The notes beneath the pieces were generated by a model. It worked only from the letters and a program-made list of their open reading frames with translations, was not told the origin of the DNA and ran no database searches. 15,856 nucleotides of DNA from a virus, in the UHGV virus genome UHGV-0214057; one strand, given 5' to 3'. This document shows, piece after piece, positions 2,076 through 5,400 of this stretch; the first letter of the stretch is position 1; every line of letters begins with the position of its first letter. Position numbers and translations under genes: made by a program.

Positions 2076-2107
2076 AGCCATCAGTACTTAACTGGTGGCT
2101 TTTTTTA
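2076..2107 (+). terminator. Rho-independent terminator-like hairpin between esterase and holin
   Basis: AGCCATCAG (2076-2084), 7-nt loop, CTGGTGGCT (2092-2100), then TTTTTTT (2101-2107). Confidence 0.45.
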
Positions 2108-2141
2108 TTGTTGTCAGCTTCCGGATAACGGGAGACGGGGT

Positions 2142-2357
2142 ATGTACCAGATGGAAAAAATCACAACAGGTGTGTCATACACCACGTCAGCGGTGGGAAC
2201 GGGCTACTGGTTCCTGCAGTTGCTGGACAGGGTTTCCCCGTCTCAGTGGGCGGCAATAGGCGTGCTGGGGAGTCTGCTGTTTGGGCTGCTGACGTACCTG
2301 ACTAACCTGTATTTCAAAATCAAAGAGGACCGGCGTAAGGCGGCGCGGGGAGAGTAA
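2142..2357 (+). CDS. S: Class II holin (pinholin), 933W/21 S-type, 71 aa
   Basis: [71 protein letters not shown] closely matches the Stx-phage S holin as I recall it. Dual-start motif Met1/Met4, two TM segments, charged C-tail; GGAGACGGGG ribosome-binding site upstream of ATG 2142. The track ORF from 2064 is an in-frame upstream extension. Confidence 0.85.
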
Positions 2358-2358
2358 A

Positions 2359-3252
2359 GTGATGAATAAAAAATATGAACTGGTTGTTAAGGGGATAAAT
2401 AATTACGGGGGTAAGGTTACTGTTACTGTGAAGCCGGAAGGTGACGGGCAAGCGTCGCTGTTGTTGCCAGATGTGGCGATTAGTCTTGACCGTACTGAAG
2501 GTGCCACGCTGGAGTTTTACGAAGCTGAGGCGAAAAAGCAGGCGAAGCAGTTTTTCATGGATGTTGCTGCTGGGTTATGTGAATGGAACGAACCGTTGCC
2601 GGAAAAGCGCCCCGTAATTTTAGAGGCGCAGGATGTGTTGATAACCTACAAAGGAAAGCTACCGGGAAGAATTACTTGTTCTCTGAAGATGCCGCCGTCA
2701 ACACTGCGGTCAGAAAAAGATGATGTTGAATCACGTATTGAAAAACTGGAGAGCTACGTCGTTGAGCTGAATAAGAAATGGTCGATATTGGTGCCTTCTG
2801 GCGATGAAAAGCAGTTTGCTGCGTTTGACGATTATTGTCGGAAAGTGATGAGCAGAAATCTCGCAGAGTGTTTCAGTATTCATAATGATAATTTCAGTGA
2901 GCTGGAATGGGAGTGTAACCGGCCATCCTTTGTTGTATCCGGTGATGCTGGGAAAATAACCATCTCAGAAAATGGGAAAGTAACACCTCCATCGCACCAG
3001 CACAGTGAGGGGCTCATTGAATTTGCCATTGATTACCTGAAGAACAATAAAAAGCAGGGGCTGATGAAGCGCGTTGGCCGTTGCATGGGATATCTTCAGG
3101 TAGCCGCTGAGATTGAAGCGCTGGCCAGTGGTGCTGATAAGGATGCAATTGTGCGGGAGGCTCTTCTTCGTGATTTTAATACTCCACCCTTTAAAAAAGT
3201 GCCGGCTTACTGGCTTCATCCGGGGCTGACTTATCTTAAAGTGCGTATTTAG
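2359..3252 (+). CDS. Hypothetical protein, 297 aa, no recognisable domain; moron between holin and endolysin
   Basis: Uninterrupted ORF beginning GTG 2359 / ATG 2362, 2-5 nt after the holin stop (TAA 2355-2357), with GGAGAG upstream: looks translationally coupled. Visibly more AT-rich than flanking genes. No TM segment or signal peptide evident. Confidence 0.65.
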   Translation: MMNKKYELVVKGINNYGGKVTVTVKPEGDGQASLLLPDVAISLDRTEGATLEFYEAEAKKQAKQFFMDVAAGLCEWNEPLPEKRPVILEAQDVLITYKGKLPGRITCSLKMPPSTLRSEKDDVESRIEKLESYVVELNKKWSILVPSGDEKQFAAFDDYCRKVMSRNLAECFSIHNDNFSELEWECNRPSFVVSGDAGKITISENGKVTPPSHQHSEGLIEFAIDYLKNNKKQGLMKRVGRCMGYLQVAAEIEALASGADKDAIVREALLRDFNTPPFKKVPAYWLHPGLTYLKVRI

Positions 3253-3288
3253 TGGGCCAGGGACAGCGGCTGAATATTTAATATATCC

Positions 3289-3822
3289 ATGAACACCAAA
3301 ATCAAATACGGCCTGTCGGCTGCCGTTCTGGCGCTGATTGCCGCTGGTGCGCCTGCGCCTGACATTCTCGACCAGTTTCTGGATGAAAAGGAAGGCAACC
3401 ACACCACAGCATACCGTGATGGTGCAGGTATCTGGACCATCTGCCGTGGTGCCATCATGGTGGATGGCAAACCTGTCGTTCCGGGCATGAAGTTGTCGAA
3501 GGAAAAATGCGACCAGGTTAACGCCATTGAGCGTGATAAAGCGCTGGCGTGGGTGGAGAAAAACATCAGAGTGCCGCTGACCGAACCCCAGAAAGCGGGG
3601 ATCGCGTCATTCTGTCCGTACAACATTGGTCCCGGTAAGTGTTTCCCGTCGACGTTTTACAGACGAATTAATGCTGGTGATCGAAAAGGTGCCTGCGAAG
3701 CGATTCGCTGGTGGATTAAGGACGGTGGCAGAGACTGCCGTATTCGTTCAAACAACTGTTACGGTCAGGTATCCCGTCGTGACCAGGAGAGCGCGCTGGC
3801 GTGCTGGGGTATCGACAGATAA
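3289..3822 (+). CDS. R: SAR endolysin (T4-lysozyme-like / GH24 family, signal-arrest-release N-terminus)
   Basis: 177 aa; N-terminal weakly hydrophobic Gly/Ala-rich SAR segment (YGLSAAVLALIAAGAPAP) followed by the E-D-T catalytic region (EGNHTTAYRDGAGIWTICRG); near-identical to the Stx-phage R as I recall it. Confidence 0.85.
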   Translation: MNTKIKYGLSAAVLALIAAGAPAPDILDQFLDEKEGNHTTAYRDGAGIWTICRGAIMVDGKPVVPGMKLSKEKCDQVNAIERDKALAWVEKNIRVPLTEPQKAGIASFCPYNIGPGKCFPSTFYRRINAGDRKGACEAIRWWIKDGGRDCRIRSNNCYGQVSRRDQESALACWGIDR

Positions 3823-3911
3823 GCAGAATATTTTGCTGAAAAATGAGGAATGGCCACGCGGGCGGATAACACGAAATCCTGCGAACTGGCGAAACGTAAG
3901 TGAATAAAAGT

Positions 3912-3951
3912 AAAAACCCCGTTTGTTGGCACCAAGCGAGGTTTTGTGTTT
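3912..3951 (+). terminator. Hairpin followed by a U-rich tract after R (possible terminator or RNA structure)
   Basis: AAAAACCCCG ... CGAGGTTTT stem with inner TTGG/CCAA pairing, followed by GTGTTTCT. A-rich on the 5' side, so it could act in both directions. Confidence 0.3.
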
Positions 3952-3979
3952 CTGACCTTGAGTAAGGCAAGGGAGAACA

Positions 3980-4161
3980 TGGCGAAGTGTAAACGAATTC
4001 TGTTGAGGTTGACTATGAAAAATGACCTTGAACTGAAAGCGCCTGTAACTGATGACATCAGCAGAGCACTGGCTTTTGCCATTAAGTGGGTGGCGGTCGG
4101 TGTTGCTGTGTCCCCGATGCTGTATGGGCTGGCAAAACTGGTCATTGCGTTGAAATCGTGA
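3980..4161 (+). CDS. Small protein (about 60 aa) with a C-terminal hydrophobic segment; function unknown
   Basis: Strong ribosome-binding site AAGGGAGAAC 5 nt before ATG 3980. Product [60 protein letters not shown] has a tail-anchor-like TM segment. Alternative start ATG 4014. Confidence 0.45.
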
Positions 4162-4175
4162 AGGGAGGATTAAGC

Positions 4176-4307
4176 ATGTCAGACAAACTCATAACGCTGG
4201 CGAAGATCCTCTGTGTAATTGTCGGCATTTCATTTTCACTAATGCTGGTTGCTCTTTTTCTTTCCATGGCCTGGATGATGTTGTCTTCGTCGGGGTTGCT
4301 GGGGTGA
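4176..4307 (+). CDS. Small single-pass membrane protein (43 aa); function unknown
   Basis: Ribosome-binding site AAGGGAGGA 6 nt before ATG 4176. Product [43 protein letters not shown] has one central TM segment. Stop TGA 4305-4307 overlaps the Rz GTG start (GTGA). Confidence 0.45.
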
Positions 4308-4777
4308 ACATAAACCGAATGCTTTCCGCGTTTATCGTTATTCTGCTGGTGGCCTGTGGTGCGCTGTGGATGGCAACAGACCATTACCGTGATAACGCGA
4401 TTACCTACAAAGCGCAGCGCGATAACAAAGCCAGTGAACTGAAGCTGGCGAACGCAACCATTACTGATATGCAGGTGCGCCAGCGCGATGTTGCTGCGCT
4501 CGATGCAAAATACTCGAGGGAATTAGCCGATGCGAGAGCTGAAAATGAAACTCTTCGCGCTGACGTTGCCGCTGGTCGTAAGCGCCTGCGGATCAACGCC
4601 ACCTGTCCAGGCTCCGTGCGTGAAGCCCCCACCACCTCCGGCGTGGATAATGCAACCGGCCCCCAACTGGCAGACACCGTTACACGGGATTATTTCACCC
4701 TCAGAGAGCGGCTGATGACGATGCAGAAGCAACTGGAAGGGGCACAGGACTATATCCGCACTCAGTGCCTGAAATAA
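4304..4777 (+). CDS. Rz: i-spanin Rz (inner-membrane spanin subunit)
   Basis: N-terminal TM segment, then [15 protein letters not shown]...[11 protein letters not shown]...[19 protein letters not shown], strongly similar to lambda Rz. Start is GTG 4304 or ATG 4319. Confidence 0.8.
4530..4715 (+). CDS. Rz1: o-spanin Rz1 (outer-membrane lipoprotein) embedded in the +1 frame of Rz
   Basis: [17 protein letters not shown] lipobox (cleavage before Cys), followed by the proline-rich [30 protein letters not shown], which matches lambda Rz1. Lies entirely inside Rz, as in lambda. Start is ATG 4530 or 4545. Confidence 0.75.
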
Positions 4778-5127
4778 GTTTTGTTGATGCGCCGTATCGT
4801 CGCTGTATTCCCTCATTAACAGAGACCGCAGCCCGACAGGGAGACTCCTCTGCGCGAGTGTGCGGGGATAATCAAAAACGATACACACCGGGGTTTACCG
4901 CGTTAACGGAGCGCGGCGTTGTCCCCTCATAGTCGCCTGTCCGGTGCGATGGTGGAAGAAGCCGGATGTTTATCACTATTAATTGATGACACAGAAATGG
5001 ATTCATTGAATTTCAGCACGTTTTTGTATTCGTGTTATTGAACATCTGTTTATTTTACTTTTAACATATTGATAATAAAAAGAGCTGTAAATCTTTAGAT
5101 GAGTCGATTTTGTCCGGGGAAGTTCAA

Positions 5128-5268
5128 ATGGATTTTATGCTGACGGTTTCTGGTGTGGTTATCCTGTCCATTGCTTATACTGCAGATAAATATGGCTGCC
5201 ATTTGTTATCACGTATTGGCGCTTATTGTTCGTTGATGCTGATTTTCTCGTCGCTTTTTTTTGAGTAA
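5128..5268 (+). CDS. Possible small hydrophobic peptide (46 aa) in an AT-rich island
   Basis: ATG 5128 preceded by GGGGA (8-nt spacing). Product MDFMLTVSGVVILSIAYTADKYGCHLLSRIGAYCSLMLIFSSLFFE. Below the 60-aa cut-off of the ORF track; coding status uncertain. Confidence 0.2.
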   Translation: MDFMLTVSGVVILSIAYTADKYGCHLLSRIGAYCSLMLIFSSLFFE

Positions 5269-5400
5269 GTTATATTAATTATAACAAATAATTTTCTGTG
5301 TTATTTTTTCAGGCTATCCCGTCAGAGGGGAAGCCTGTACTGCCGGGGAGCGAATGGAAAACTGATGTGTCCGGTAACTGCGTGTTCTGTGAACACCATG

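Follow-up and report, generated by a model that had tools for sequence, protein, structure and literature searches.

Two conserved small membrane-protein genes between the endolysin and spanin genes of a lambdoid prophage, one of them carried on a mobile late-operon cassette

Introduction

The cassette of holin, endolysin and spanin genes that textbooks assign to phage lysis has increasingly been shown to be incomplete, as illustrated by the releasin of phage Mu, the Lcc6 protein of phage LambdaSo and the HokW peptide. The HokW-SokW system of Sp5, a prophage encoding Shiga toxin 2 (Stx2), assists lysis and doubles phage release (PMC8621323), and Lcc6, a transmembrane (TM) protein of 65 amino acids (aa), is required at the pinholin step (bioRxiv 10.1101/2024.01.23.576932). 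In this study, we analyze the region between the endolysin gene R and the spanin gene Rz of the viral sequence UHGV-0214057, which comprises 15,856 nucleotides (nt) and is referred to in its full length as the window. The interval that separates R from Rz is approximately 480 bp long and contains two short open reading frames (ORFs), here designated ORF1 and ORF2.

Lysis timing sets the burst size and, in Stx phages, the release of Shiga toxin. In phage P2, the slot between the endolysin and spanin genes is occupied by lysA. Several membrane proteins encoded in or beside lysis cassettes tune this timing, instead of performing a lysis step, including P2 LysA, the gp25 releasin of Mu (DUF2730; PMC9239132) and the antiholins S21-71, T4 RI and P1 LydB, and ORF1 and ORF2 resemble them in location and membrane character. 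However, neither ORF has a sequence or domain match to these regulators, and ORF1 is not tied to a single type of holin or endolysin.

Both genes are very common and are already present in databases as hypothetical proteins. The new observations are that ORF1 is mobile and apparently self-insulated and that ORF2, coupled to Rz, is a gene of Stx phages that has been overlooked and is unannotated in hundreds of their genomes, including phi24B and its relatives. Should these peptides prove to tune lysis or to kill cells by themselves, they would bear on toxin release, on the biology of prophage induction and on the annotation of small proteins; should they have no measurable effect, the interval would still cleanly exemplify a recombination hot spot in which small membrane ORFs accumulate.

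Results

Two conserved genes separate R from Rz

Short ORFs are common by chance in this region, in which 47 ORFs of at least 20 aa occur in 3.1 kb. Therefore, the presence of an ORF proves nothing, and our case rests on comparison. ORF1 (3979-4161, plus strand; PHROG 1115, PGAP WP_074161156.1) encodes a tail-anchored inner-membrane protein of 60 aa. Its ATG, which a first-pass annotation of the window had placed one nucleotide downstream, at 3980, in a frame that contains six stop codons, is preceded at a spacing of 3 nt by the Shine-Dalgarno (SD) sequence AAGGGAG (3969-3975). ORF2 (4176-4307, plus strand; PHROG 4906, PGAP WP_001280932.1) encodes a single-pass membrane protein of 43 aa, and its SD sequence, AAGGGAGGA (4161-4169), lies 6 nt ahead of the ATG at 4176 and overlaps the ORF1 stop codon; both the coordinates and the near-consensus SD sequence agree with the first-pass annotation.

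Compared with the Salmonella copies, ORF1 has accumulated 19-23.5 synonymous versus 16-18.5 non-synonymous differences, which corresponds to a ratio of non-synonymous to synonymous differences per site (pN/pS) of 0.26-0.29 (Fisher p 4e-5 and 2e-7). The differences are distributed 11:4:20 over the three codon positions; a comparable signal is missing from the other two frames. That the leader is coding sequence as well is indicated by three synonymous and two conservative changes in a remote copy (L100; related loci are cited by such L numbers) and by an in-frame insertion of 3 nt in the GER2 allele. For ORF2, comparison with L189, the copy that has diverged most, gives a pN/pS of 0.37 (p 2e-4), and comparison with phage phi24B gives 0.50 (p 0.05). 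Both frames are under purifying selection, and ORF1 and ORF2 are genuine conserved genes for small membrane proteins. The first-pass annotation had reported two small membrane-protein ORFs with strong ribosome-binding sites, together with a hairpin, and had named a lack of frame conservation in related phages as one result that would overturn them; the ORFs are real, and their frames are conserved in both the pN/pS ratios and the length of ORF2.

The interval between R and Rz was found in 2,121 of the 5,426 complete E. coli genomes, 990 of which carry at least 80% of it. Both proteins match PHROG families of unknown function, namely 1115, 4493 and 3246 for ORF1 (E 5.7e-41, 1.2e-26 and 5.1e-19) and 4906 for ORF2 (E 2.1e-23). 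Both are called hypothetical by PGAP, and the source records name them without exception as "hypothetical", "membrane" or "transmembrane protein". In Pfam, ORF1 matched no family at E values up to 1, and the only match of ORF2 was to DUF3930, at an E value of 0.08 that lies below the cutoff. No relatives of either protein were found in NCBIfam or the PDB, PADLOC contained no family for either at E values up to 1, and a search of the interval against Rfam identified no known RNA family at gathering or E-value thresholds. Our literature search found no paper on either gene. The taxonomic spread of ORF1 rests on protein matches in E. coli, E. marmotae, Shigella and Salmonella and on metagenome contigs; a scan of species-representative genomes produced 45 pattern matches, and tblastn confirmed none of them. 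The remote copies were collected by DNA pattern scans, which are biased to copies that retain the conserved 5′ codons.

As the first-pass annotation had stated for lambda, nothing occupies this position in the lambdoid remnants of K-12: R and Rz overlap in DLP12 and Qin, and there is no insert. Ribosome-profiling data on small proteins of K-12 are uninformative here because the K-12 prophages lack the insert between R and Rz.

ORF1 encodes a tail-anchored protein with a probable second start

The ORF1 protein consists of a basic N-terminal portion of 37 aa (8 K/R), a single TM segment at approximately residues 38-56 and four terminal residues, and the hydrophobic, tail-anchored character noted in the first-pass annotation is borne out. 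The N-terminal portion comprises a basic leader (residues 1-12) and a conserved cytoplasmic motif, MKNxLExxAPVT, which precedes the C-terminal TM helix. An AlphaFold2 model (mean pLDDT 78) predicts a helix at residues 2-19, a break at APV and a helix at residues 23-59. An amphipathic character of the N-terminal helix was considered and rejected, as its hydrophobic moment is no higher than that of shuffled sequences. Across the family, the leader (x-Y-K-R-I-L-x-R-L-T), an invariant internal Met, the segment MKNGLExDAPVTxEI and the TM helix are conserved, and the C-terminus is variable (…ALKS, …AIRWW, …VAMK).

The internal Met, Met13, is encoded by an ATG at 4015 in the same frame and follows an SD sequence, GAGGT (4005-4009), at a gap of 5 nt (4005-4017 in total, plus strand); initiation at this codon would produce a protein of 48 aa. 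All 11 diverse alleles compared have GAGG or GGAGG 5-6 nt ahead of the internal Met, despite the differing residues that it encodes (RLT, EAN, EVN, RLS), and for this reason the internal start looks real. Two isoforms of 60 and 48 aa are likely on this pattern, and many gene callers begin the protein at the internal Met, which yields database entries of 48 aa.

Among 1.84 billion representative proteins, a HMMER profile of ORF1 recovered only 16 small relatives, which are 20-87 aa long and include no holins. Homology of the ORF1 TM segment to the second TM domain (TMD2) of pinholins had been suggested by the chimeric product P0110 and by 7/16 identities (pairwise BLASTP, E 0.004). This candidate was rejected on the absence of a Pfam match, the holin-free profile matches, the opposite predicted topology and the occurrence of other holin classes alongside ORF1.

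ORF1 belongs to a mobile cassette

In Salmonella, ORF1 homologues occupy the endolysin-Rz junction beside an HP1-type holin and a lysozyme, beside a P21 holin, a lysozyme and an antirepressor, and beside a lambda-S-type holin and a GH19 endolysin. Further copies adjoin an endolysin of the 'RNNNPGNIRWG' type and, in a P2-like myovirus, lie between a PG_binding_1 endolysin and spanin-like genes; in L189, two small genes separate the copy from a GH108 endolysin upstream of it. Elsewhere, ORF1 follows tail-fibre assembly genes or lies between major-tail and chaperone genes, and in P2-like phages copies are inserted between the baseplate genes V (spike) and W (gpW-like). In both lambdoid and P2-like phages, these cassettes are found at junctions of late operons, only in the sense orientation, and their most frequent location is between an endolysin and a spanin gene. 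Their internal order is fixed: a hairpin is followed by the basic leader of 12 residues, the internal Met with its SD sequence, the conserved motif and the C-terminal TM helix. ORF1 is a mobile, apparently self-insulated cassette and is neither lysis-specific nor a fixed component of the lysis cassette.

In several loci, a unit of a hairpin and a small tail-anchored ORF occurs twice in tandem (L222, approximately 500-740; L223 and L224, approximately 2700-2960). The second ORF of L222 is clearly an ORF1 paralogue, with the leader VDFKPLVKF, an internal Met, MKDGIE and a C-terminal AIRWW, and that of L223 and L224 has only a loose N-terminal likeness (VINFS...) to the mini-ORF that precedes Rz in CP-1639. 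Furthermore, a small lipoprotein-like gene (M(T/K)RKHWTHR…LVPFFLV(S/G)C) lies 3′ of ORF1 or of the ORF1-ORF2 unit in two otherwise different phages (L165, 4343-4618; L189, 5715-5912 on the reverse strand), and it might belong to a larger travelling unit.

Chimeric or frameshifted products were also encountered (P0110, from an ENA contig of 554 nt, and P0081-P0091). In one type, the N-terminus of a holin is joined to the C-terminus of ORF1, and in another, the N-terminus of ORF2 leads through another frame into the C-terminus of ORF1. In phages of the PhiR5_1 type, an N-terminally truncated ORF1 lies downstream of ORF2. The R-Rz interval is a recombination hot spot.

A hairpin and an opposing promoter-like site accompany ORF1

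The 5′ boundary of the ORF1 cassette is a terminator-like hairpin (3913-3945) of bidirectional shape, with an A-run on the 5′ side and a T-run on the 3′ side, followed by GTGTTTCTG. The hairpin of the window is weak (-12 kcal/mol, z -1.0) because of one G>A mismatch, and the homologous hairpins are strong: -23.5 to -24.9 kcal/mol with z -3.5 to -4.2 in L015, L008 and L011, and -19.6 kcal/mol with z -2.5 in L013. A hairpin accompanies ORF1 in all of the contexts examined, and a 45-nt segment with a folding energy (dG) of -15 or lower is present in 48 of 54 distinct ORF1 upstream regions. Compensatory double changes occur at 5 of the 10 pairs of the stem.

A consensus scan of six alleles (the window, L008, L013, L015, L100 and L101) detected no sigma-70-like promoter on the plus strand between the hairpin and ORF1. 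On the minus strand, a promoter-like site lies within ORF1 codons 3-13 (3986-4015) and points at the hairpin; it consists of a -35 element, TAGTCA (4015..4010), a spacing of 18 nt and a -10 element, TACACT (3991..3986), with 8/12 matches. The homologous position scores 10/12 in L101 and L015 and 9/12 in L008 and L013, and the sequences include TAGTCA-18-TATAAT (L101), TAGTCA-18-TATACT (L008), TGGACA-18-TATACT (GER2) and TTGGCC-16-TATACT (L013). In our own scan, the site scored 9-10/12 in 30 of 34 distinct combinations of region and upstream sequence; the other four, all of the window type, scored 8/12. It also occurs in relatives that were found by protein similarity alone, namely L223-L225 and, as read by eye, L226. 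Overall, about 11 of 12 lineages have the site at this position, and it is kept or improved where the -35 element has changed (TGGACA in GER2; TTGGCC and TTTACC at a spacing of 16 nt).

The bidirectional hairpin lies 60-100 nt downstream of this site. A transcript initiated there would begin close to the start codon of ORF1 and run across the SD sequence as far as the hairpin, with a length of approximately 75 nt in the window and 100 nt in Salmonella. The geometry of the two elements would place such a cis-antisense RNA, which is hypothetical, at 3905-3979 on the minus strand of the window. The published prophage small RNAs (sRNAs) AsxR/AgvB and Pas were considered as candidates and set aside, as they are located at PR′ or esterase-holin sites and not between R and Rz.

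In the Salmonella and GER2 alleles, an upstream ORF (uORF) of 8 codons (MCREVCSL or MGREVLSL) with a strong SD sequence terminates at a TGA codon overlapping the GTG with which ORF1 begins. This uORF is located at 2978-3003 in L008 and is also present in L010, L011 and L015. In the E. coli allele of the window, a deletion of approximately 26 nt removes the uORF and fuses its SD sequence to ORF1.

ORF2 is coupled to Rz in Stx phages

The ORF2 protein is very hydrophobic at residues 11-29, the TM segment that bears out the single-pass character assigned to it at first pass, and has an uncharged C-terminal tail. Full-length homologues with 65-100% identity were found by tblastn in 276 phage records, mostly of Stx1- and Stx2-converting phages, in which ORF2 is usually unannotated. 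In the loci examined, each of the 178 copies is 43 codons long with TGA as its stop codon. Downstream, the Rz start is reached within approximately 15 nt in about 165 of them, and a truncated ORF1 comes next in 5 and a different ORF in 4. ORF2 is a single-pass protein of 43 aa of lambdoid phages of E. coli and Shigella, and of Stx phages especially.

In phi24B and P27, the gene order is S, R, a truncated antirepressor gene (ant), the ORF2 homologue, Rz/Rz1 and bor; the start codon of ORF2 and the stop codon of ant overlap, and ORF2 itself ends 8 nt ahead of the Rz ATG. The first-pass annotation had placed a larger antirepressor-like gene at this position in 933W-type phages, and an antirepressor gene is present there in 933W-type Stx phages, together with an ORF2 homologue between ant and Rz that it had not mentioned. 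It had also described ORF2 as overlapping the Rz start codon. This overlap holds if Rz begins at the GTG at 4304, which overlaps the ORF2 stop codon (TGA, 4305-4307), and fails if Rz begins at the ATG at 4319, which PGAP selects in an identical E. coli sequence. The GTG opens the longest frame and gives an N-terminus (MNINR...) like the MNR... of the homologues; initiation at the ATG leaves no positive charge ahead of the TM segment. As the ORF2 stop abuts or overlaps the Rz start, ORF2 is co-transcribed and probably translationally coupled with the spanin.

A family of TM peptides of 28-32 aa (…WKFLLIW…(I/L)RWW), unrelated to ORF1, was observed after ORF1-like genes in tail contexts and ahead of Rz in CP-1639, PhiR5_1 and phi-O153. 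Members of the family are located in L100 (3153-3239), L101 (729-827), L016 (2660-2797) and L003 (2906-3001). Kinship of ORF2 with these mini-peptides or with ORF1 was rejected on hhalign probabilities of 0.5% and 4%, respectively.

Flanking genes of the window

The window corresponds to the late region of an E. coli lambdoid prophage, with the rightward order of esterase, holin, DUF1327 gene, R, the interval, Rz/Rz1, and terminase and head genes. The esterase gene (123-1991, rightward) belongs to the SASA family and is followed by a rightward gene for a P21-type class II holin (ORF 2064-2357; PF04971), whose likely start is the MYQM motif at 2142. A strong terminator-like hairpin lies between these two genes (2074-2108; GAGCCATCAG...CTGGTGGC plus T7, -19 kcal/mol) and has no match in Rfam; a 2026 preprint places the prophage sRNAs PasA and PasC at this esterase-holin position. 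The rightward gene between the holin and the endolysin (2359-3252) encodes a DUF1327/YdfR-family protein of 297 aa with an N-terminal DUF1327 domain, which is approximately three times as long as YdfR of K-12 and matches PHROG 1085 over its full length (E 5e-188). The copy of this gene in E. coli SCU-176 is 100% identical and is annotated by PGAP only as a truncated pseudogene.

The upstream boundary of the interval is R (3289-3822, plus strand), a SAR-type endolysin gene (PF00959, E 2.4e-24; rrrQ-like lysozyme in PGAP) whose product has a SAR-like N-terminus of weak hydrophobicity, MNTKIKYGLSAAVLALIAAGAP. The conserved spacer 3′ of R (3823-3912, plus strand) is common to many Stx phages regardless of the next gene, and approximately 200 Stx-phage records match bases 1-155 of our query (3823-3977 of the window) at 86-90% identity, with variable cargo downstream. 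Within this spacer, a mini-ORF of 17 codons (3851-3904; MATRADNTKSCELAKRK) lacks a convincing SD sequence; it has lost its stop codon and reads into ORF1 in one relative (P0001), and it is probably not a gene.

Downstream, the i-spanin gene Rz (GTG 4304 or ATG 4319 to 4777, plus strand; PF03245, E 1e-47) contains the embedded Rz1 (4530-4715, plus strand; PF06085, E 4e-20). An AT-rich stretch at 4980-5300, at the position of bor in lambda, contains an ORF for a hydrophobic protein of 52 aa (5110-5268) without a match in PHROG. Colinearity of the window with E. coli SCU-176 is limited to approximately 2100-4900; thus, the cargo after Rz varies among otherwise identical lysis regions.

Discussion

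We tentatively favor the reading that ORF1 and ORF2 are late-expressed, membrane-active accessory lysis peptides, and we would give it somewhat less than an even chance. Because no plus-strand promoter was detected in the six alleles, and because the SD sequences and the stop and start codons are tightly packed with Rz, the two ORFs appear to be late-operon passengers. Both would be carried on the late, Q-antiterminated lysis transcript, in which they lie between the endolysin and spanin genes. In the lysogen, the upstream terminator and the opposing promoter-like site, through an RNA of approximately 75-100 nt over the ribosome-binding site, would silence ORF1 according to the logic of type I toxin genes. 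After induction, terminator-resistant late transcription would lead to the production of both peptides, which would insert into the inner membrane in an N-in/C-out orientation and weaken the membrane or the proton-motive force. Such weakening would advance or secure the triggering of the pinholin and the SAR endolysin's release, and the peptides would thus be accessory, non-essential lysis factors. The layout of the sequence suggests antisense silencing of the type I toxin kind for ORF1. The first-pass annotation had proposed antiholins or lysis-timing modulators, superinfection-exclusion factors or membrane-depolarizing toxins; of these, a membrane toxin expressed late would, as we infer, fit the anatomy best. 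A broader version of this proposal is doubtful in our opinion. It holds that the units of hairpin, leader and peptide may form a widespread new family of type-I-toxin-like modules, in which a dual-start, tail-anchored toxin is paired with a cis-antisense RNA of approximately 75-100 nt that ends at a bidirectional terminator. Such modules would have spread through late operons of both lambdoid and P2-like phages, in some cases as tandem arrays, and would serve as holin-independent membrane "fuses" that set or secure the time of lysis; in Stx phages, ORF2 would be their partner, coupled to the spanin.

Several observations weigh against the accessory-lysis reading. The conservation of the minus-strand site is not independent of the conservation of the protein because it is largely dictated by Lys-Tyr-Lys and Leu-Thr-Met, and we estimate that codon choice alone would yield the site approximately one time in three. 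The site is absent in L222, where the Tyr codon is TAC, and the window allele itself, with Cys4 encoded by TGT, combines the weakest site with a weakened hairpin. Genuine type I toxins normally have their own promoter, and the consensus scan of six alleles found none for ORF1. In addition, expression of the downstream genes sits uneasily with a strong terminator placed midway through a P2-like baseplate operon, and approximately half of the ORF1 contexts are non-lysis cassettes. ORF2 has no insulation features at all, and only its position bears on its role.

The presence of ORF1 cassettes at classic moron sites, such as the tail-fibre end and the junctions between tail genes, raises the question of whether one or both peptides are lysogenic-conversion products, which would be made in the lysogen and, from the inner membrane, block DNA entry by superinfecting phages or otherwise benefit the host, as does HK97 gp15 (PMC3594210). 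This explanation agrees with the insertion of genes for small inner-membrane proteins where relatives have contiguous genes and with a G+C content of 0.47, lower than the 0.54 of the surroundings. However, there is a terminator-like hairpin upstream of ORF1 and a promoter-like site aimed against the gene, the six alleles provided no plus-strand promoter between the hairpin and ORF1, ORF2 is packed onto Rz with no room for signals of its own, and no match to YebO/gp15 or to a PADLOC model was obtained; we consider the explanation unlikely. The anatomy of ORF1 that led us to the accessory-lysis reading would serve equally well for a purely selfish or defensive type I toxin-antitoxin system, in which ORF1 and its antisense RNA would function in addiction or abortive infection without a role in the lysis of the phage itself, and ORF2 would be unrelated cargo. 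The mobility of the cassette and the tandem arrays of L222, L223 and L224 are also in keeping with such a system. Against it, the cassettes occur only in phage late operons and are oriented in the sense direction, a pattern suggestive of reliance on late transcription, and neither a toxin promoter nor a PADLOC match was found; a purely selfish system is therefore, in our judgment, rather unlikely.

The location of both genes in the lysis cassette, with ORF2 coupled to Rz, could instead point to dedicated partners of particular lysis proteins, for example, an antiholin or co-holin of the P21-type pinholin, a helper of the SAR endolysin resembling releasin, or a factor that chaperones or inhibits the TM domain of Rz. 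The endolysin-spanin junction, at which P2 carries lysA, is favored in unrelated phages; Mu gp25 (PMC9239132) and Lcc6 provide precedents; and the ORF1 TM segment has the weak likeness to pinholin TMD2 described above (7/16 identities, E 0.004). However, the neighbors of ORF1 include three different holin families and no fewer than four types of endolysin, some copies of ORF1 lie in operons for tail or baseplate genes instead, its predicted topology is opposite to that of pinholin TMD2, its profile matches in 1.84 billion proteins include no holins, and DUF2730 and holin families of Pfam gave no match; a specific partnership is improbable. We also considered that the ORFs may be functionless passengers, that is, translated spacers that keep ribosomes on the message up to the Rz start after cargo insertions have split R from Rz. 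Stop-start coupling to Rz characterizes nearly all ORF2 copies, rearrangements, truncations and fusions are frequent in the interval, and the last slot before Rz is filled by several unrelated small TM ORFs, all of which a spacer role would accommodate. Purifying selection on the amino-acid sequence, including invariant TM residues, and the retention of sequence by ORF1 relatives where Rz does not follow make this explanation quite improbable.

Comparison with known systems

The P21 pinholin class (PF04971) and the releasin class (DUF2730) are both a poor fit, as neither gave a Pfam match, each of our ORFs has a single TM segment rather than two, and the TM segment of ORF1 is C-terminal rather than N-terminal as in releasins. 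The dual in-frame starts of ORF1 are reminiscent of holin/antiholin pairs. However, the charge-gating logic of S107 and S21-71 is inapplicable to ORF1 because a long distance separates the additional N-terminal residues from the TM helix.

According to the description of morons by Juhala et al. (2000), extra DNA is found between otherwise adjacent genes, and ORF1 agrees with this description in that the same cassette occurs at several unrelated junctions. A moron is also expected to have its own promoter upstream and a terminator downstream, whereas in the window the hairpin is upstream and no terminator precedes Rz; some copies of ORF1 in tail contexts (L013, L168) do have a downstream terminator. 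HK97 gp15 (PMC3594210) is likewise a small inner-membrane gene located between late genes, and an ORF1 cassette occupies the equivalent site of the tail operon in L168. However, gp15 is expressed in the prophage from its own promoter and has a downstream terminator, whereas ORF1 has an upstream hairpin and no plus-strand promoter, and ORF1 shows no similarity to the YebO family.

Lcc6 is similar in size, as a TM protein of approximately 60-65 aa, and in its setting in a lambda-like phage with a pinholin and a SAR endolysin, where it represents an additional, unsuspected membrane factor of the holin step. It differs from ORF1 in having an N-terminal TM segment and a cytoplasmic tail, in being encoded near int/xis outside the lysis cassette, and in being essential for lysis; none of the 16 relatives of ORF1 in the profile search resembles Lcc6, a comparison that was made without direct use of the Lcc6 sequence.

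In comparison with the hok family, ORF1 has no sequence relation to Hok (no match to the Hok/Gef profile PF01848), its TM helix is C-terminal rather than N-terminal, it resides in a late operon rather than at a separate locus, and its toxin promoter was not found in the scanned alleles, with an antisense RNA that is so far only predicted. Nevertheless, ORF1 is of the size of type I toxins, which are TM peptides of approximately 60 aa or less (60 or 48 aa, TM segment 38-56), and, like hokW-sokW of Sp5, it encodes a small hydrophobic inner-membrane peptide in a Stx-type prophage. The stop codon of a leader ORF overlaps the start of the putative toxin gene in the Salmonella and GER2 alleles, as in hok/mok, and the candidate short antisense RNA would cover the ribosome-binding region and end at a terminator, as in hok/sok. 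ORF1 would also share with hokW-sokW a contribution to phage-induced lysis, which is proposed here.

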